Positions 13,617 through 61,618 of a DNA stretch of 64,000 nucleotides are shown here, piece by piece (within the stretch, counting starts at the first letter, position 1; every line of letters starts with the position of its first letter). A program made the translations under genes and the position numbers. Under the pieces are notes generated by a model. It had not been told where the DNA came from. It did not search any database and was given only the letters and a program-made list of their open reading frames with translations. The DNA comes from an uncultured Candidatus Saccharibacteria bacterium (GTDB lineage Bacteria > Patescibacteriota > Minisyncoccia > Phycocordibacterales > CSBR16-119): NCBI GenBank assembly GCA_964589975.1, contig CAZPVH010000001.1, positions 246,851 to 310,850 on the forward strand, read 5' to 3'.

Positions 13617-13656
13617 ATCACCATGTTAGCAAATTTGATAGAATGTTTCCAGATCT

Positions 13657-13770
13657 CCCGTTAGAGATCGTGGTCGCTAGTAAGAAAAAACCTTATGAAA
13701 ATATCAAATACAAATATTATTAAAATAGGCTGGATAGTCTGCGGAACGACCGCGACCTATCTCTAACGGG
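13657..13770. repeat. intergenic inverted-repeat element, copy B (in a divergent intergenic region)
   Basis: Arms CCCGTTAGAGATCGTGGTCG (13657-13676) and CGACCGCGACCTATCTCTAACGGG (13747-13770). The right arm is immediately followed by ATG at 13771. Confidence 0.8.
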
Positions 13771-18005: not shown

Positions 18006-19262
18006 ATGTACGATCCATACAAAGACTTCAAGCGCTTTACCCTCCCGAATGGCGTGACAGTTTATCACTATTACGCCGACCGCCCTTGGGTCATGCTTCG
18101 AGCAAATGTGCATGTGGGGTGGAAAGATGACCCCGTCGGTCAAAGTGGCCTTGCGCATTTCGTCGAACACTTGGTCAGCAAAAATATCGAGGGCCACGAC
18201 TACCAAGAGACTCGAGACTTCTTCAAGCGTAATGGTGATCCGGTCAACTTTGGAGTAACCTTCTACGAATGTACTCAATATGGCTTTCGTATCATCTACA
18301 ATGAAACGAACTTTGCCAAAGCCCTCGACATCTTTGGACTGATGCTACTCGGAGCAAAACTTGAAAACCAAGTTGATCTTCAGCGAAGTGTGATTAACCG
18401 AGAATTTTATCGTGATCATACACCGCGACATGGTGTCGATTGGCGGATGGAAGTATGCCGCAGCATGTTCAAGGGGCACTTTCTGGAAAACCACACGACA
18501 GGACTTGGTATTCCTGAACACTTCATGGCAATCACAAAGCAATCGCTTCAAGATTTCTATGACAAATACTATGTGCCGAGCAACATCAGTATAGTTGTCT
18601 GCGGTGGTATCGAGAGAGAAGATCTAGAGAAACGCCTGCGGGACAGCATGCTCGGGATGCTCGGAAATAATCTAGGTGGCAGAAATGGATTACCAGAGAC
18701 TCCGTGGAAAATTGTTCGTCCCGAGACAAACCTCATAATCAAACACCTCTCGGACGTTCACAAAGATAAAGTGGAGCAGACGACCTATACTGCAACATGG
18801 GCGTTACCAACTAGTCTTCGTGAAGAAAATGTCGGTATCACCACAAGAGTGTTACGTCATCTACTCATGAAGGAAATTCGTGAGAAGCTTGGCGGTACGT
18901 ACGATGTCAGTGTCAATTACGCCTGGTGGCAAGACATGATGAGTCTTTCCATACAGACGAAGGTCGGCGAATCAATGACTGACAGTGTAGACATTATGGT
19001 TCGCAAATGCATCGATGATCTGCGAATGTCTCAGGATGTCTTTGACCTTGAAAAGGAATCACGACTCATCAGATATTCACTGATTGAACACTGGCCAAGA
19101 AAGATCTGTGATGTGGCTATCAAGGATATCGGTAAGCATCAACGCATCGTGACCCTGATGGAAGATCTTCGAGATGACATGGCCCTTACTCACGAAGATA
19201 TGTGTGTGGTGGCTGATCATCTTTCGGTCGAGCAACAGTGTACGCTCATCATCACGCCTTGA
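18006..19262 (+). CDS. M16-family zinc peptidase (pitrilysin/insulinase-like)
   Basis: Inverted zinc motif HFVEH. Start reset to MYDPYKDF at 18006, downstream of a TTGTCA-N17-TATTGT promoter. Confidence 0.8.
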   Translation: MYDPYKDFKRFTLPNGVTVYHYYADRPWVMLRANVHVGWKDDPVGQSGLAHFVEHLVSKNIEGHDYQETRDFFKRNGDPVNFGVTFYECTQYGFRIIYNETNFAKALDIFGLMLLGAKLENQVDLQRSVINREFYRDHTPRHGVDWRMEVCRSMFKGHFLENHTTGLGIPEHFMAITKQSLQDFYDKYYVPSNISIVVCGGIEREDLEKRLRDSMLGMLGNNLGGRNGLPETPWKIVRPETNLIIKHLSDVHKDKVEQTTYTATWALPTSLREENVGITTRVLRHLLMKEIREKLGGTYDVSVNYAWWQDMMSLSIQTKVGESMTDSVDIMVRKCIDDLRMSQDVFDLEKESRLIRYSLIEHWPRKICDVAIKDIGKHQRIVTLMEDLRDDMALTHEDMCVVADHLSVEQQCTLIITP

Positions 19263-19319: not shown

Positions 19320-20210
19320 TTAACGTACTGGCTTCTTCCAACAGTCGGTGCCGAGATACCCGACGAAGATCGGCTGCGTGAGAAATGGTCGCGCAACCAC
19401 AGCCAGGAATGGTCGATCAATGGTGTGTGGTTTTGGAGCATCCAAGCTGATACCTCGCGATATCATCATCGCGACAGCACTCTCAACTTTTGCGCCGACA
19501 TGATCCATGCAGAACTTCGTCTGCTGGACGGCTTGGGTGATCACCGCAATACGTCCATCCCTTCCGAAGGTCGAGAGGCCAATCAGCCAGCCGAGATCCG
19601 GTTGCAAATCGAGATCGATCATCGGAAAGATCACGCCTGGATACTGCTGGAGGCTCGGCTTCGTTCCGCTCATGATACGTAGAGCAAACCCGTTGAGCTC
19701 TTCCTCCGCCACGGCCTCGTCGGTCATGGTGAGGTACACAACGTCGCCTGAAACCGTCTCGATCCTCACGATCGGTTCGAAGTGGTCCGGGAGCTCAAGG
19801 AATTCAATTCCTTTTTTGAGCAGCACGGCCGGAAACATCCGGTCCGTATTTTGGAGACGGACACCCGTCTCGATTCCCTTCTCGAGCCATTCGAGCATAA
19901 GCTTCAAGACGCTGGCAATGCCGATCTCTCCCGCAGCTCCAGTTGGTTTGAGTTCGATCACAAACCCACGGTCCCGGAGGAACCTGTTTACTGTGGCAAT
20001 GTCCTGCGAGGCGATGCTCTCAAGTTCAGGCATGTCGGATACTTCATCGCGACCGGGCGCGAAAGCGAGCTCGATGAATTGGTGCTGAACTTCATCAAGG
20101 GCTTTCCAAGGCCGATGTGGTCCAAGTTCCTTTTCGGCAGCCACAAGGGCGCCAACGATCGGATAGACGACAGATGTTGCGGTATTGGTCTTTGTTTGCG
20201 CGGCTTCCAT
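19320..20210 (-). CDS. hypothetical protein (296 aa), GC-rich island gene
   Basis: Preceded by a repeated promoter/5'UTR module. The C-terminus has a faint serpin-like motif that was not trusted. Confidence 0.5.
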   Translation of the reverse strand: MEAAQTKTNTATSVVYPIVGALVAAEKELGPHRPWKALDEVQHQFIELAFAPGRDEVSDMPELESIASQDIATVNRFLRDRGFVIELKPTGAAGEIGIASVLKLMLEWLEKGIETGVRLQNTDRMFPAVLLKKGIEFLELPDHFEPIVRIETVSGDVVYLTMTDEAVAEEELNGFALRIMSGTKPSLQQYPGVIFPMIDLDLQPDLGWLIGLSTFGRDGRIAVITQAVQQTKFCMDHVGAKVESAVAMMISRGISLDAPKPHTIDRPFLAVVARPFLTQPIFVGYLGTDCWKKPVR

Positions 20211-20300
20211 CTTTTGGTTTTTTGAGGTTCTGGAAGTTTGGTTTTTTCTGATGTGATATTACTTAAATTATTTCAAAAGTCAATATGCGTACATATCCCA
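20211..20300 (-). promoter_or_regulatory. repeated promoter/5'UTR module, copy 1 (TTGACT-N16-TAATAT plus a leader with two AAAAAACCAAA boxes)
   Basis: About 90% identical to 22059-22140 over roughly 80 bp. Confidence 0.65.
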
Positions 20301-20348
20301 TAAATATCAAAGGCCGGCAGCTTACGCTGCCGGCCTTTTGCCATATGG

Positions 20349-20609
20349 TCAGATGACCCTGAGGACATGCATCGTGGACGGGAAACCGCTTGGCACCCGT
20401 TGGCTCACATTCATTGCGGTCACATCATCGGTCTTCTTGAAGAGCCATGAACTGCCTCGGAATCCCCCGTGGCCACTGTTGTCACCTGGAAGCGGCATGC
20501 TGATGAAGCGCTCTCCGACTTTCAGCTCACCGAAGCTGAGAGTTTCGAAGAACACCTCCGGTAATTCCATCCATCGCTTTTTGAGCGAAGGTGTCGTCTT
20601 TGTTTCCAT
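20349..20609 (-). CDS. hypothetical protein (86 aa)
   Basis: Preceded by AAAAAACCAAAACA-ATG. A hairpin terminator follows it at 20311-20340. Confidence 0.4.
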   Translation of the reverse strand: METKTTPSLKKRWMELPEVFFETLSFGELKVGERFISMPLPGDNSGHGGFRGSSWLFKKTDDVTAMNVSQRVPSGFPSTMHVLRVI

Positions 20610-20631
20610 TGTTTTGGTTTTTTGGTTTGAC

Positions 20632-20997
20632 CTACGGAATGCTGACGGTGTACTTGATGCGATGCGTTTCTTCAGAAAAAGTGATGATCACTGCATTTCG
20701 CCAAGCTTGCCTAAGCTCTGCAAAGGCGGCCTTGACCTGTCTGGCGTTCTTCAACTTGTATGGGTTGTCGTCATAGTAAAGCGTTCTACCTGATTTCCCA
20801 TATTTGAAGAGGTCGCCGATGATGTCTTCTTCTTTGAGAAGTCGAGAAACGGAAGCTGGCGCAGACTCACGTAGCGATCGCTTGAGAAGTTCTTCTTCCC
20901 TATCAATTCGCTGTACTGCAGCCTGAAAATCCGCAAAGACGCTGAGTCTGGTAGACCGAGCGACCTGAAGAGACGTGGTATCAATTACTCCTGCCAT
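20632..20997 (-). CDS. hypothetical protein (121 aa)
   Basis: Own copy of the TTGACT promoter/leader at 20998-21075. Confidence 0.45.
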   Translation of the reverse strand: MAGVIDTTSLQVARSTRLSVFADFQAAVQRIDREEELLKRSLRESAPASVSRLLKEEDIIGDLFKYGKSGRTLYYDDNPYKLKNARQVKAAFAELRQAWRNAVIITFSEETHRIKYTVSIP

Positions 20998-21075
20998 CGT
21001 TGCTGTTAGATGTTGCTGTTTTTGAGGTGCTGTCGGTTAGGACAATACCAGATTTAATATAAAAGTCAATATAAG
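20998..21075 (-). promoter_or_regulatory. repeated promoter/5'UTR module, divergent copy
   Basis: TATTGACTTTTATATT... and a CCTCAAAAAC leader shared with the other copies. Confidence 0.5.
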
Positions 21076-21266
21076 CCTACGTAAGGGTGTGAGATGATAA
21101 TTTAAAGTTGTGACCCTAAGAGTTGGCTTTCCGAACTTACGAAAAGCTACTCTTTGATTAAAACAAGTATAGCTGATTTCCGGAGTTTAGGGTTAGTTTA
21201 TTCAAAATAAAGCAATACAGGCGCCCCCTTTCGGAAGCGCCTGCAAAGTTACTTGTGTGTCAGTAG

Positions 21267-22058
21267 TCAAACAGCCACGCCATTAAGTTCCGCGATGATA
21301 GGAACTTGTTGTTTGTGGAAGTTGACCACCTCGATAGCTCTTCGTATGTAAGCCTCCTGGTTTACAGTCAGCTCGTCATCGGTAAGAGGCTCGATACTGC
21401 CCTTGAGGATCTTCTTAGCAAGTCCTCCAGAAAGGAGTTCGGTAAAAGCGGTGTCTTCTCCACGCTCAAGCATTCCTCGTAGTCCGTAGAAGTCAGAACG
21501 CTTGAAAAGCATCTCCTGATTGGTGGTGCGGAAATAGTGACCGCCATTTCCACCATCATACGTCCACTGAATGTTTGAATGACAGTGCATCACCCAGTCC
21601 CAACCAGGACAAAGCATCTTGGCTGAGATCCAGTCATATTCCACCTTACTCCTGTCCTTCGCCCCACCGATGTAGATCATGATCTCGTCACCGACTTTGA
21701 AGTGTTTGACGCCGCGGAATCGTGGGAGAACGAACTTTTTCTCATCTGCTTTTGCATGAAGTCGCTTAAGCAGTTTTACAAGTTCGCCCATGTTGTACTG
21801 GACCAGATTGTTACGCGCACTTTTTGCCAGGGCTTCCTCGATGAGAAGGTTCGACTTTCGTTTCTTCTTCTTCAAACTTCTCACTTCTTCTCGGACATCT
21901 TCAAGTTCTTGATATGCTTCGATGATGTGTTCCGAGGCACGAGAAGAAATGGCCTCGATATTAGCGACTCCGAGCGTCTTACTGACTGCCGGAAGTACGA
22001 TCGTAGGTAGTGAGAAAACGACACTTGCGTAGTCCCACAAGTCTTGTTGTTTGGGCAT
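21267..22058 (-). CDS. hypothetical protein (263 aa)
   Basis: Driven by promoter/leader copy 2. A hairpin terminator follows its stop. Confidence 0.5.
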   Translation of the reverse strand: MPKQQDLWDYASVVFSLPTIVLPAVSKTLGVANIEAISSRASEHIIEAYQELEDVREEVRSLKKKKRKSNLLIEEALAKSARNNLVQYNMGELVKLLKRLHAKADEKKFVLPRFRGVKHFKVGDEIMIYIGGAKDRSKVEYDWISAKMLCPGWDWVMHCHSNIQWTYDGGNGGHYFRTTNQEMLFKRSDFYGLRGMLERGEDTAFTELLSGGLAKKILKGSIEPLTDDELTVNQEAYIRRAIEVVNFHKQQVPIIAELNGVAV

Positions 22059-22140
22059 GGTTTGGTTTTTTGAGGTTCTGGAATTGGTTTTTTCTGATGT
22101 GATATTACTTAAATAGTAGGAAAAGTCAATGTTCTGAAAT
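22059..22140 (-). promoter_or_regulatory. repeated promoter/5'UTR module, copy 2
   Basis: Near-identical to 20211-20300. Confidence 0.65.
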
Positions 22141-22214: not shown

Positions 22215-22289
22215 GGCCCTATCGTCTAACGGTTAGGACGGATCCTTCTCAAGGATTAAATCGGGGTTCGATTCCCCGTAGGGTCACCA
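22215..22289 (+). tRNA. tRNA-Glu (anticodon CUC), CCA encoded
   Basis: Cloverleaf folded by hand: 7 bp acceptor stem, 8 nt D-loop, anticodon loop TTCTCAA, T-loop TTCGATT, 3' CCA. Confidence 0.85.
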
Positions 22290-22344
22290 ATGTTTGTTAG
22301 GTAGCAGTTACGTAAAATAATCTATATTCGGAATCTATCCCATG

Positions 22345-23691
22345 TCAGGAATCTTTATTATTTTTATAATCAAGCCCTTCTCTCTTTATGTTGTTTCGCC
22401 TTCTGGATAGTGATCTAATTTGTTTCTCAATTTTAATATTTTTGAACATTGATAGACTTTTTTTCAGATAATTACTTTTTATCTTGCTTCTCTTACGTAA
22501 GACCGGTTTAAATTTATAGGAAGTATTACCTAACATTTTTTGTACCTTATTTTCCTGCCTGTCTCGCAATTTACCTAAACTTTTCTTCCTCATTAGAATT
22601 TTATCTCCATAGAATTCAAAACCTAAATAATCGATATATTTTCTTCTTTTTAACTTACCATCCCCATCTGTTACTTTTGTTATTATATTTTTATTTAAAT
22701 AAGAAATATTCGTCTTGCCTGGCTGAATCTTGAGATGATTCGTTTTAATTTTTTCTAATAAGAATGTATAAATTTCTTCCTTTTCTGCTTCGGAACAGAC
22801 AATAAAAATATCATCACTATATCTTCTATAAAAAGAATCGGGGAAATTTTTTTTGAACGCCAAATCAAATTCATACATATATATGTTTGAAAATAGTCCA
22901 CTTATAGGACTGCCTTGTGGAATACCAATATTACTTTTACTCTTTTTTATGTAATTTTTTAGTTTTAAATAAACATTTGGGGTACCTTTTTTATTTCTTA
23001 GAACATGCCTTATGTCTGTTTTTTTAAAATCTGGATAGTAATTTATATATTTATATCTTGTAAGGGATTTGTAAATTTTATAAATTAGTGGACCTAACCT
23101 ATTTACAGATAAAATATTTTCTAGATTATTTTTTAGTAAAATATGATTTAATTCATCAAAAAACTTTGTTATATCTGCAGTTATTACTACACATGACTCA
23201 TGTTTTTTTATTTCTTGGAATGCCTCTGATGCAAAATGAATATTGCATTTATTTTTTTGCGGATTCTCTAATGTTGGTACTTTTCTATAAGCAGTTATGG
23301 ATCTATCTATATGATTTGCTTTTATTTTTTTATCATAAAACTCATATACCAGATAATTATAGTAACTGTAAATATACGAGTCGAGATTAGATGCATACAT
23401 TATCGGTCTTTGCTTTTTACTTTTTTGTTTTTCTCTATAAAGACAGCTTTTTATGCAATTTTTCCCAAGCTCAAGTCTTCCACAGTTACATTCTTTGCGT
23501 CTATATCTTATTTCTATGTTGACTCTTTTTATAAAAGGCAGAAATTGATGATTAGTTAAATTTCTAATCGATTTTTCAATTTTTTTTATGTCTTCGTCTC
23601 TATTAAGATCGATTTTGACATCAAAATGTTTATACATTTTGATGTCTTTTTTCTCCTTTAATCCCTGTACCCATTCATCAAACTTATACAT
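22345..23691 (-). CDS. reverse transcriptase (retron/Abi/unclassified-group type), very AT-rich
   Basis: RT motifs ADITKFFD (A/3), GIPQGSPISGLFSNIYM (B/4), YRRYSDD (C/5), KTNI (6), YLGFEF (7). N-terminal about 100 aa extension with CxC-x8-C-x3-C. Basic C-terminal tail. Confidence 0.85.
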   Translation of the reverse strand: MYKFDEWVQGLKEKKDIKMYKHFDVKIDLNRDEDIKKIEKSIRNLTNHQFLPFIKRVNIEIRYRRKECNCGRLELGKNCIKSCLYREKQKSKKQRPIMYASNLDSYIYSYYNYLVYEFYDKKIKANHIDRSITAYRKVPTLENPQKNKCNIHFASEAFQEIKKHESCVVITADITKFFDELNHILLKNNLENILSVNRLGPLIYKIYKSLTRYKYINYYPDFKKTDIRHVLRNKKGTPNVYLKLKNYIKKSKSNIGIPQGSPISGLFSNIYMYEFDLAFKKNFPDSFYRRYSDDIFIVCSEAEKEEIYTFLLEKIKTNHLKIQPGKTNISYLNKNIITKVTDGDGKLKRRKYIDYLGFEFYGDKILMRKKSLGKLRDRQENKVQKMLGNTSYKFKPVLRKRSKIKSNYLKKSLSMFKNIKIEKQIRSLSRRRNNIKREGLDYKNNKDS

Positions 23692-23696
23692 ATGTT

Positions 23697-24057
23697 AAAA
23701 CGAAAAAACCCGTCTACTTTAATACAAGCCGTAATTAAAGACGTAAACGGGTTTCTATCATACTATTCATTACCCTATAAACAAGTTGAGCTTGTAAATG
23801 GGTTCCGGTGTTATATATTTGCCGGGGCTTGGATCAAATTATGTTAATATCATGATAAGTCAAATAATTCAGTTCCTCTTAGGTGTAAACCTGCGAGATG
23901 AACTATCGGCTTTAGCAGAATATTATTATTCATTTGTTTGTTGGGTCTCGTGTTATTCACACGGAGATTTGCAAACAATCATAAATATTTTTTCTAGCTC
24001 ATCTAAATAGGAGAAATCATTGCGAATAGTCGAATAAATAACCCTAAAAAAGCTAGT
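23697..24057 (-). ncRNA. candidate structured leader/ncRNA of the RT locus (about 330 nt)
   Basis: TTGCCA-N16-TATAAT promoter on the minus strand at about 24064-24091. Several stem-loops. Strong hairpin plus U6 (23697-23750) immediately before the RT ATG. Confidence 0.35.
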
Positions 24058-24115
24058 AAAAATATTATACAGGACACGCCACTTTTGGCAAAATTTAGTG
24101 TGGTAAGATTGCTTA

Positions 24116-34814: not shown

Positions 34815-34928
34815 CCCTTTAGAGATAGCAAACTTTTAGTTTGCGTACCCCACCAAACTTAATAATAATTTTAACTATTCCTCAAGCTCCCACTTAGATT
34901 TCTTCGGTAATCTGACATCTCTAACGGG
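34811..34928. repeat. intergenic inverted-repeat element, copy G (degenerate)
   Basis: Left arm CATCCCTTTAGAGATAGC overlaps the grpE ATG. Right arm ATCTCTAACGGGAC lies at about 34915-34928. Confidence 0.55.
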
Positions 34929-46761: not shown

Positions 46762-47601
46762 TCACCAAGAAATGGCGGCGCGCCTTTCAACGCGCAAGAG
46801 TTCGTTGCCGTACATCACTCGCACAACATACATCCCAGGCGAAGCGGCAAGCAATTCAAACTGTCGAAGAAAATCCTGGCCCGAAATCCTCTTGACGAAA
46901 GCGCCCCGAGAATCAAGTACTTCATATGACAACGCTGCGGCACCAGCCGAGTACTCCTCGACTGTGGTGGACAGGCTGCACGGGTACACAACGGTTTGCG
47001 GCGCCCAGTCGACATCATAGAGACTGTTTCCCAAATACTCCGCCACATGGAAGTCGTAAGTTTCCTGCGGCACATTGAGAACGGTATCGATCGGGCTGAG
47101 GCCAGCATTGGGGGCTTCGAATTCCGCATACAAGTTTCCGCCATCGAAAAGCTTTGCATACAGGTATAGTCCTTGATCGTTGGGGGCTGTGAGCCGGATG
47201 GGAGCCAGCATGTCGCCGCAATTTGTGTCTGGCAGAATCTCCAGAGTGCCGATGAACGAAAAGCACGAATTCATTTCGTATACACTGCTCGGGAAAATCG
47301 TATCGCGTACTCCGCCGATCCAGAACGACTTGAAGACCTGGTAGTAACCAGGTGGAACCGCAATCGTAGTATCGAATTCTCCCGACGACCACAGGGTTTC
47401 ATAGAAGTTAGTGCTCCTATAGATGGTAATCTCGACAGAGTCGACGCCGAGCTCCGAGAGTCCGGTGAACCGGAGATCACCGACAGGATTTTCGAGCCCG
47501 CAATCCGTCTGGGCCAAGACTTCGACATAAATGTCGGCTTGGCTAAAAGAGATTCTCGGCAGGACGAGTCCCGCGAGCAAAAGAAGAGTCGTGATTTTCA
47601 T
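46762..47601 (-). CDS. secreted protein with a C-terminal beta-sandwich sorting-like tail (Por/T9SS-CTD-like)
   Basis: Signal peptide. C-terminus ...LDSRGAFVKRISG...GMYVVRVMYGNELLRVERR. Confidence 0.45.
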   Translation of the reverse strand: MKITTLLLLAGLVLPRISFSQADIYVEVLAQTDCGLENPVGDLRFTGLSELGVDSVEITIYRSTNFYETLWSSGEFDTTIAVPPGYYQVFKSFWIGGVRDTIFPSSVYEMNSCFSFIGTLEILPDTNCGDMLAPIRLTAPNDQGLYLYAKLFDGGNLYAEFEAPNAGLSPIDTVLNVPQETYDFHVAEYLGNSLYDVDWAPQTVVYPCSLSTTVEEYSAGAAALSYEVLDSRGAFVKRISGQDFLRQFELLAASPGMYVVRVMYGNELLRVERRAAISW

Positions 47602-52053: not shown

Positions 52054-52167
52054 CCCGTTAGAGGCAGATCGCGGTCTTGTCGCAATCTGCCTTAGTTATA
52101 TTTTTAATTTTATTTTGATTTGAATTCATAATTTTAAATTTTTACAGCGGTCGTGGCCTCTAACGGG
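52051..52167. repeat. intergenic inverted-repeat element, copy C
   Basis: Arms CATCCCGTTAGAGGCAGATCGCGGTC and GCGGTCGTGGCCTCTAACGGG. The core has TTCAAA-N18-TATAAC on the minus strand. Confidence 0.8.
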
Positions 52168-57375: not shown

Positions 57376-57490
57376 CCCGTTAGAAGCAGGTCGCGGTCTT
57401 TACGCGATCTGCCATGATTAGATTTATAATTGTTACTTTTATTGTCATAAATTTGAATCCTTACTCACGCGACCGCGGCTTCTAACGGGA
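57373..57490. repeat. intergenic inverted-repeat element, copy D
   Basis: Arms CATCCCGTTAGAAGCAGGTCGCGGTC and GCGACCGCGGCTTCTAACGGG, with about 70 bp of AT-rich core. Confidence 0.85.
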
Positions 57491-57569
57491 TTGCATAAGT
57501 AAGAGAATTCTAGCAGAAAAGTCTTTCGAACAAAAGAAGAGCCCCGACGCAACGCCGGGGCCTCGTTCT

Positions 57570-61510: not shown

Positions 61511-61618
61511 TTCATAATATTCTTATACTTGACTTTTTGCTTAATCTATGGTAGTATATACTCAGAAACTCAAGCTAGTTCACCCTCCAAGCATTGCTTG
61601 GTCAAAACCCAAAACAAC

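Follow-up and report, generated by a model that had tools for sequence, protein, structure and literature searches.

Ribosome-binding sites (RBSs) that are A-rich and do not follow the Shine-Dalgarno (SD) pattern are an established class, group B of GeneMarkS-2 (PMC6028130). In Bacteroidetes members of this group, a short A-rich motif precedes the starts of both first and operon-internal genes at a constant small spacing, SD words are almost unused, and the upstream region is unstructured (PMC6028130). Here we describe a comparable start signal in a bacterium deposited as an uncultured Candidatus Saccharibacteria bacterium, where it forms part of a promoter-leader segment of ~75 nt, hereafter the module, that occurs twice in a small gene island. 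The DNA analysed, hereafter the window, is a stretch of 64 kb (positions 246,851 to 310,850 of CAZPVH010000001.1) from a contig of at least 329 kb, and all copy counts apply to these 64 kb. The island consists of four minus-strand open reading frames (ORFs), P296, P86, P121, and P263, between a convergent M16 peptidase gene and tRNA-Glu(CUC). A second kind of known element is also relevant to the module. C/A-rich translational enhancers, such as the CA multimers in Escherichia coli leaders and the omega leader of tobacco mosaic virus, are G-poor and unstructured and raise translation without SD pairing; they act beside or apart from an RBS in hosts that use SD sites.

The module is probably a duplicated expression cassette of ~75 nt, built on a non-SD start signal specific to the lineage and placed before two unrelated accessory genes, P263 and P296. 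Its two minus-strand copies run from 20284 to 20208 (before P296) and from 22130 to 22056 (before P263). Aligned from ATTGACTTTT to the ATG, they were 88% identical over 77 columns, with seven mismatches and one 2-nt indel. Five of the seven substitutions fell in the promoter spacer, and the identity from TAATAT to the ATG was 93%. The blocks TAATATCACATCAGAAAAAACC and TCCAGAACCTCAAAAAACCAAA (31 and 23 nt) each occurred exactly twice in the window with up to three mismatches allowed, while shuffled sequence gave zero matches at the same threshold. Similarity ended just upstream of the -35 box, giving a unit of ~75 nt. An earlier reading made from the sequence alone (the sequence-only reading) had reported two copies with about 90% identity, which agrees with our alignment and its exact 31- and 23-nt blocks, although the repeated range is slightly shorter than it had given. 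The same reading held that identical expression signals stand before genes that are not paralogues, and this was confirmed for the two module copies before P263 and P296: no pairwise similarity was found among P296, P263, P121, and P86 (best BLASTP E 0.6). The parts of the two copies are as follows.

22102-22130, minus strand: promoter of P263, with the -35 box TTGACT at 22129-22124, a 16-nt spacer, and the -10 box TAATAT at 22107-22102 (consensus scan)
22059-22101, minus strand: leader of P263 (module copy 2), with two AAAAAACCAA boxes at 22084-22093 and 22062-22071
20256-20284, minus strand: promoter of P296 (module copy 1), with the -35 box TTGACT at 20283-20278, a 16-nt spacer, and the -10 box TAATAT at 20261-20256 (consensus scan; kept in the related contig L029)
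20211-20255, minus strand: leader of P296, with two AAAAAACCAA boxes at 20238-20247 and 20214-20223

At both copies, TTGACT-N16-TAATAT scored 9/12 in the consensus scan, and its hexamers were kept in contigs of two relatives (L028 and L029) while the spacer varied, as in a sigma-70-type promoter. The leader of the module is ~40 nt long and G-poor and carries two AAAAAACCAA boxes, the second of which ends 3 nt before the ATG in the P263 leader. All five occurrences of this exact 10-mer in the window were inside the island. The leaders had predicted folding energies of 0 to -5.8 kcal/mol, not better than those of shuffled sequences, with 0 kcal/mol for the P263 leader. Two independent Logan assemblies of the same strain (L032 and L033) had the same sequence and junctions; DNA of this strain is present in the runs SRR16481186 and SRR16481187. 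One of their contigs, L032, starts and ends exactly within the shared 31-mer. Genuine repeats break k-mer assembly in this way, and the repeat is therefore real.

A comparison with related genomes, which the sequence-only reading had suggested as a check, showed that L029 keeps the P296 gene together with its module and that L028 keeps the P263 promoter and the start-proximal box. L029 is a Logan contig that is colinear with the window over 9.7–20.3 kb, with a DNA identity of 71–82% in coding blocks (68–82% as the range of genes). The L029 orthologue of P296, a serpin gene, lies in the same place beside the M16 peptidase gene (62% amino acid identity and 68% coding-DNA identity) and is preceded by the module (L029:405-475), where the upstream sequence reads ATTGACTTTccatattttttaatTAATATCACATCAGAAAAAACCAACGTCCAGAACCTCCAAAAACCGAAAG-ATG. 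The 55 nt before the serpin ATG were 89% identical between the window and L029, compared to 68% for the coding sequence. Across the nine orthologous upstream regions of the window and L029, the others had identities of 41–88%, and one other, which holds a terminator and a -10 box, was equally conserved. Because of the difference between upstream and coding identity, the module appears to be under purifying selection. The serpin gene, because it is syntenic with the same module in the diverged L029, is an old resident of this locus and not freshly captured cargo.

The closer relative, L028, whose P263 is 89% identical to that of the window, kept TTGACT-N17-TAATAT-CAC and the start-proximal AAAGAAAAACCAAACC-ATG, while its distal box and the segment between the boxes were replaced by a hairpin-forming insert of ~115 nt. 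The whole P263 leader of L028 (146 nt) folded at -45 kcal/mol (z -2.9). Since the insert replaces the distal box, the two-box arrangement is dispensable for P263. The remoter homologues of P263 and P296 had other promoters, usually with GGAG-type sites.

The sequence-only reading had placed a third, more diverged copy at 20998-21075, ahead of P121. This site (21069-20998) does share ATATTGACTTTT and the 16-nt spacing with the module, but its -10 box is TG-TATTGT and its leader is not alignable (62% in register). The P121 promoter was rejected as a full diverged copy of the module, the common part being the -35 region and the spacing only. What had been described as a truncated leader before the 86-amino-acid ORF proved to be one exact AAAAAACCAA box within a bicistronic unit, 4 nt ahead of the P86 ATG in the 22 nt that separate P121 from P86; the consensus scan found no promoter between the P121 and P86 ORFs. 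In total, the scan gave three minus-strand promoter-like sites with a common TTGACT -35 box and a 16-nt spacer. As each unit has its own promoter and terminator, the island is three self-contained transcription units, P263, P121 with P86, and P296, each with its own sigma-70-type promoter. The remaining features of the island and its borders are listed here.

18006 (approximate true start) to 19262, plus strand: M16 peptidase gene, convergent with P296
19271-19310, no strand assigned: hairpin with a 19-bp inverted repeat (I1) between the convergent P296 and M16 peptidase genes, kept in L029; likely a bidirectional terminator
19320-20210, minus strand: P296, compact protein of 296 amino acids with a predicted serpin fold (family profile, structure model, and Foldseek)
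20309-20338, minus strand: intrinsic terminator after P86, a G+C-rich hairpin (consensus scan)
20349-20609, minus strand: P86, member of a family of small proteins, 86 amino acids (278 cluster representatives, alignment)
20610-20631, minus strand: spacer of 22 nt between P121 and P86, with a single exact AAAAAACCAA box at 20614-20623
20632-20997, minus strand: P121, orphan ORF of 121 amino acids, whose sole match is itself
20998-21041, minus strand: leader of P121, C/A-rich and G-poor, which resembles the module leader in composition without clear homology to it
21042-21072, minus strand: promoter of P121 and P86, with ATATTGACTTTT, a 16-nt spacer, and the extended -10 box TG-TATTGT (hexamers within 21069-21042)
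21216-21245, minus strand: intrinsic terminator after P263, a G+C-rich hairpin (consensus scan; kept in L028)
21267-22058, minus strand: P263, protein of 263 amino acids with function unassigned (16 homologues, structure model)
22215-22289, plus strand: tRNA-Glu(CUC), divergent from P263, at the boundary to a low-GC block with a DRT2 gene

The guanine-plus-cytosine (GC) contents of the four island genes (0.55, 0.54, 0.49, and 0.48) differed from the window mean of 0.46, as had been claimed, but the differences were modest. This heterogeneity was typical of the other genes with the same leader box, and the real GC outlier was the DRT2 gene (0.27).

The box is not confined to the island. Among the 5-mers at positions -20 to -1 relative to 71 gene starts in the window, AAACC/AACCA were the most enriched (13/71 genes vs 1.5 expected, p 3e-9). 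With the island genes left out, 10 genes had them against 1.4 expected. GGAGG and AGGAG were at background level before the same 71 starts and not enriched. None of GGAG, GAGG, and AGGA was found in the leaders of P296, P263, P121, and P86, which therefore do not qualify as SD sites. These counts agree with the proposal of the sequence-only reading that A/C-rich boxes stand in place of an SD sequence. Boxes of the AAAACC[AG]A type preceded 11 plausible starts in the window, nine of them 3–6 nt before the ATG, and the two exceptions were P177 (12 nt) and the ORF at 61604 (11 nt). Boxed starts included those of the M16 peptidase gene (…CTGAACCCTAAAAACCAACGTACC-ATG), several hypothetical proteins, and the operon-internal P86; a further example is CACCAGAAAAACCTTAAAAACCAAGACG-ATG ahead of 46762-47601. 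The boxed genes had a higher GC content at third codon positions (0.585 vs 0.486, p 2e-4), and most had no Pfam match.

The sequence-only reading had named one outcome that would overturn its view, namely that the module is simply the generic strong promoter of the organism. The layout, a sigma-70-type promoter followed by an A/C-rich leader with AAAACCAA 3–6 nt before the ATG, is indeed generic, as it occurs at ~12 of the 71 genes, including the M16 peptidase gene, but the full 75-nt sequence precedes just two genes in the window, P263 and P296. In L029, the box motif was found at 3 of 14 genes. It was absent from 90 genes in five remoter loci that carry homologues of P263 or P296, where SD-like words were more frequent. 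From these distributions, we infer that the start-proximal box would be the general SD substitute of this lineage. Its positions follow those of A-rich non-SD RBSs of group B, with short and consistent spacing at first and operon-internal starts, at a minority of genes.

Two observations concern other gene starts. The ORF of the M16 peptidase was listed with 444 amino acids from 17928; its probable start is the internal ATG at 18006 (418 amino acids), which agrees with the 418-amino-acid orthologue in L029 and has a AAAAACCAA box ahead of it. Many genes in the window have a -10-like box (often TGnTAnAAT) 6–10 nt ahead of the ATG and are probably leaderless, judging from this pattern, which is that of group C in PMC6028130.

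The start signal of the cassette may be regarded as analogous to the A-rich non-SD RBSs of Bacteroidetes, with a different core and a narrow range. Compared to group B in Bacteroidetes, the motif here has an obligatory CC (AAAACCAA) and covers about one-sixth of the genes, most of the others looking leaderless. In addition, the host is a Kaiserbacteria-like bacterium of the candidate phyla radiation (CPR), and the motif was found only in the genome of the window and in L029. The P121 leader (…ACAGCAACATCTAACAGCAACG-ATG) is of the same type as the C/A-rich enhancers. In contrast to those enhancers, the element described here is apparently the sole signal, with a defined core and spacing.

In the proposed mechanism, transcription from TTGACT-N16-TAATAT would start ~7 nt past the -10 box and yield a G-poor, unstructured leader of ~40 nt. 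The ribosome would then be recruited by a single-stranded A/C-rich segment of this leader, set close to the ATG at a constant spacing, and not by pairing with the CCUCC anti-SD sequence. The cassette may stem from a promoter-leader segment that was duplicated or recombined, and purifying selection would have preserved it since then. It would provide strong and parallel expression of unrelated accessory genes. That two genes share one promoter-leader is, taken alone, a case of ordinary promoter duplication. The box offers a concrete sequence for translation assays and bears on how translation starts in an uncultured CPR lineage, and a genome-wide occurrence would affect gene-start prediction and small-gene annotation in these genomes. 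If the box does act as an RBS, a change from AAAACCAA to AAAAGGAA would be expected to lose initiation.

Several points weigh against this interpretation. The promoter and the role in translation were assigned from consensus matches and position, and the count of full modules covers 64 kb, with the contig extending over at least 329 kb. The identity of ~90% over ~55 nt, including the TCCAGAACCTC segment, exceeds what a purely compositional need for A and C would require, which hints at sequence-specific recognition. Base pairing with an altered 3' tail of the 16S rRNA is also possible: if that tail were complementary to AAACCAAA, the box would be a true but altered SD sequence. A normal tail (…CACCUCCUUUCU) would fit SD-independent recruitment, whereas a tail with UUUGGUU would make the box a re-coded SD sequence.

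An unlikely but still tenable alternative is that the leader is a regulon signal, in which the boxes (C)AGAAAAAACCAA and TCAAAAAACCAA, 22–24 nt apart, and the segment between them bind a trans-acting factor. A roadblock DNA-binding repressor, an RNA-binding protein, or a small RNA could play this part, and the serpin and P263 would be switched jointly. The leader is kept base for base, at 89% identity across species against 68% in the coding sequence and at 93% between the copies within the genome, which is more conservation than composition needs. In addition, the boxes lie about two helical turns apart, and the complete two-box module precedes only two genes in the window. However, L028 swaps the distal box and the inter-box segment for the hairpin insert of ~115 nt while keeping the promoter and the proximal box, many unrelated genes have a single box ahead of them at the spacing expected for an RBS, and no regulator gene was found in or adjoining the island.

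A broader combination seems improbable to us, in which AAAACCAA would be a true SD replacement specific to a Kaiserbacteria-like CPR clade, read by an altered 16S tail or a dedicated ribosomal or initiation factor, and the fully conserved 75-nt two-box module would mark a small regulon of accessory genes (the serpin and P263) and at the same time serve as a substrate for cassette exchange by tRNA-Glu.

Cassette exchange as the explanation of the module has, in our view, a rather slim chance. Here, the region near tRNA-Glu would be a recombination hotspot, in which whole units of promoter, leader, gene, and terminator would be gained or lost by recombination in the common -35 region ATATTGACTTTT, and the shared module would serve as both recombination substrate and expression signal. 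Direct ATATTGACTTTT repeats at 21061-21072 and 20275-20286 bracket the 786-bp P121-P86 unit, P121 is an orphan, and the L029 spacer before the serpin promoter matches the L028 spacer after P263, which suggests an adjacency of P263 and the serpin in relatives, without P121-P86. L028 also has an 18-nt copy of the tRNA-Glu 3' end 5 nt ahead of the -35 box of P263, and the neighbours of P263 homologues include a tmRNA gene in L001, a tRNA 3' end with flanking direct repeats of 59–83 nt in L034, and a large serine recombinase in L038. However, there is no integrase or recombinase in or adjoining the island, and no attC-like inverted repeats were found in it, the only such structures being terminators. 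Simple duplication would also leave a 12-nt repeat at two homologous promoters, the P121-P86 difference may be either an insertion or a deletion, and L028 and L029 are different organisms, so the adjacency deduced from them is indirect. The P296 gene, moreover, is stably syntenic. The modular acquisition site proposed by the sequence-only reading is likewise at odds with the serpin gene, which is syntenic with the same module in L029, P121-P86 being the one unit that resembles a presence/absence polymorphism. In our assessment, the region is prone to rearrangement but does not amount to a dedicated cassette system.

Finally, it is hardly credible that the repeat is functionless, whether as a neutral duplication of recent date, an artefact of assembly, or a chance similarity, because, although short-read assemblies break at the repeat and the order of the units in the genome bin depends on the assembler's resolution, chance is excluded by the shuffles, the same junctions are present in independent assemblies, and the module is kept at an orthologous site despite a coding-DNA divergence of ~20–30%, which neutral sequence would not survive.

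The duplicated cassette also differs from described mobile systems. Like the island, integron cassette arrays occupy a variable region and combine small, unrelated genes that share an orientation and differ in composition. Integron cassettes are promoterless, whereas each island unit has a promoter and a terminator and the serpin unit is syntenic; no integrase (IntI), attI, or attC was found. The locus resembles tRNA-linked genomic islands in that it adjoins tRNA-Glu, the low-GC DRT2 block follows immediately 3' of this tRNA, and a tRNA-Glu 3' fragment lies by P263 in L028. In contrast to such islands, the four genes lie 5' of the tRNA, are close to the host in composition, and have no integrase beside them. 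With up to three mismatches allowed, no direct repeat of the tRNA-Glu 3' end that would delimit an island was found in the window. Between the M16 peptidase gene and the DUF218 gene lie the ORFs of the four island genes and of the DRT2 reverse transcriptase, none of which matched a recombinase model.

Searches for the module and its genes elsewhere gave the following results. We searched viral, genome, and metagenome contigs, among which the source genome was not included, for GAAAAAACCAA-N8-20-TCAAAAAACCAAA, and all 20 of the 20 loci found were unrelated A-rich chance matches. Two further patterns of the module had zero matches in viral contigs, and no relatives of P263 were found in these contigs. 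BLAST searches of the island DNA, P86, and P263 against phage and plasmid records yielded no match. Rfam searches identified only the tRNA in the window and nothing credible in L028, L029, and L032.

In the related contigs, the surroundings of P263 were as follows. In L028 (L028:1-210), GATTCCCCGTAGGGTCAC is an exact copy of the 18-nt tRNA-Glu 3' end, in the same orientation as the P263 gene, and looks like an att-type remnant of an integration at tRNA-Glu. In L034 (L034:1-2400), a P263 homologue lies downstream of a tRNA 3' end, with direct intergenic repeats of 83 nt (93%) and 59 nt (85%) and neighbours of alternating GC content (0.33–0.57). In L038 (L038:600-7400), the homologue adjoins genes for a large serine recombinase and a Ser/Thr kinase, and in L001 (L001:8295-10795) it is 1.3 kb from a tmRNA gene.

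The sequence-only reading had suggested that the island genes might be associated with defence and had noted a nearby tRNA-Glu and reverse transcriptase. The adjacency was confirmed, and the reverse transcriptase is of the DRT2 type. The role in defence found no support: P296, P86, P121, and P263 as single sequences had no match in Pfam, PHROGs, or PADLOC, with no family of the PADLOC defence models matching any of them at E <= 0.1, there were no phage or plasmid matches, and DRT2 forms a separate low-GC block beyond the tRNA. The DRT2-type defence reverse transcriptase gene (22345-23691, minus strand; PADLOC Drt2, E 7e-99) lies in a block at 22290-24110 with a GC content of 27–31%. Some 170 nt upstream of the reverse transcriptase start, where the DRT2 non-coding RNA would be expected, the minus strand has a promoter-like site, TTGACT-N-TAATTT, at 23863. 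The DRT2 block is not delimited by a repeat of the tRNA 3' end in the window.

The remote-homology searches and structure predictions that the sequence-only reading had recommended resolved one of the proteins, P296, as a serpin, while P263 had no match and P121 remained an orphan. P296 has 14 homologues, of which one (P0026) carries PF00079 (Serpin). The profile of the family (15 homologues) matched PAI-1 and other serpins in the PDB (E 9e-8) over residues 215–287, which include the hinge and the C-terminal signature; the single P296 sequence did not match the Pfam Serpin model at E < 0.1. The AlphaFold model of P296 had a mean confidence (pLDDT) of 89 and a pTM of 0.77. In a Foldseek search of the PDB with this model, 123 hits had E <= 1e-3, and the best 50 listed were all serpins (E 1e-9, probability 1.0, TM ~0.55). 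By fold and sequence profile, P296 is thus predicted to be a compact serpin of 296 amino acids. As in the prokaryotic serpins thermopin (1mtp) and miropin (5ncs/5nct), it has the serpin fold, the hinge and reactive loop (GAKVESAVAMM…), and the C-terminal DRPF…P.F.G. Compared to typical serpins, it is ~80–100 residues shorter, and an inhibitory role is putative.

The P263 family comprises 17 proteins including P263, and its sole named member is from Candidatus Kaiserbacteria. Judging from these sequences, the family appears only in CPR bacteria, and its fold has no match. The model of P263 (pLDDT 77) has an N-terminal coiled-coil hairpin and a beta-rich domain with conserved Cys and His residues, and no significant structural or sequence match was found. 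Around residues 143–175, the family has the invariant or nearly invariant W..S..K.LCP…HCHSN…GGHYF, with C150, H158, C159, and H174, a pattern that suggests a predicted metal-binding site in the beta domain. The shape, a coiled coil with a globular domain, loosely resembles factors of the DksA/Gfh1 type, a likeness that no search backs. An exact look-up of P0001, the P263 sequence of the window from the NCBI source contig, returned no record.

P121 matched only itself among 5.8 billion proteins; its sequence is also present in the same-strain contigs L032 and L033. P86, in contrast to this orphan, is one of a widespread family of small proteins, for which 278 cluster representatives were found at E <= 1e-3 and whose core is LTFGELkVGdkFI.LP.PGDN.GHGGF. 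Forty members of the family had no Pfam hit, and a cluster look-up gave no informative names. The part FI.LP.PGDN.GHGGF of this core is also found as a C-terminal domain of longer proteins and occurs in eight tandem copies in the 889-amino-acid P0048 (set P0034-P0183). P121 and P86 were considered as a toxin-antitoxin pair and rejected, as neither had Pfam, PHROGs, or PADLOC hits, P121 has no homologue, and P86 is common elsewhere without P121. Our analysis provides a serpin fold for a previously blank family and defines P263 and P86 as conserved unknowns.

A second repeated leader, ~110 nt long and unrelated to the module, was identified elsewhere in the window.

13655-13770, plus strand: copy of the ~110-nt leader
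34815-34925, minus strand: copy of the ~110-nt leader
52054-52165, minus strand: copy of the ~110-nt leader
57376-57492, minus strand: copy of the ~110-nt leader

These copies precede two genes for RNase_T-family exonucleases, frr (ribosome recycling factor), and grpE. The leader had no Rfam match and was not present at the L029 orthologue of the first exonuclease. Its 3' arm, GCG..GACCGCGAYCT..CTCTAACGGG, extends exactly to the ATG and pairs with the 5' arm, CCCGTTAGAG..CGCGGTCGC; the interior enclosed by the two is AT-rich. Among its 16 predicted pairs, five had compensatory changes. We consider it a candidate for a cis-regulatory RNA or a palindromic insertion element, which would sequester the start region.

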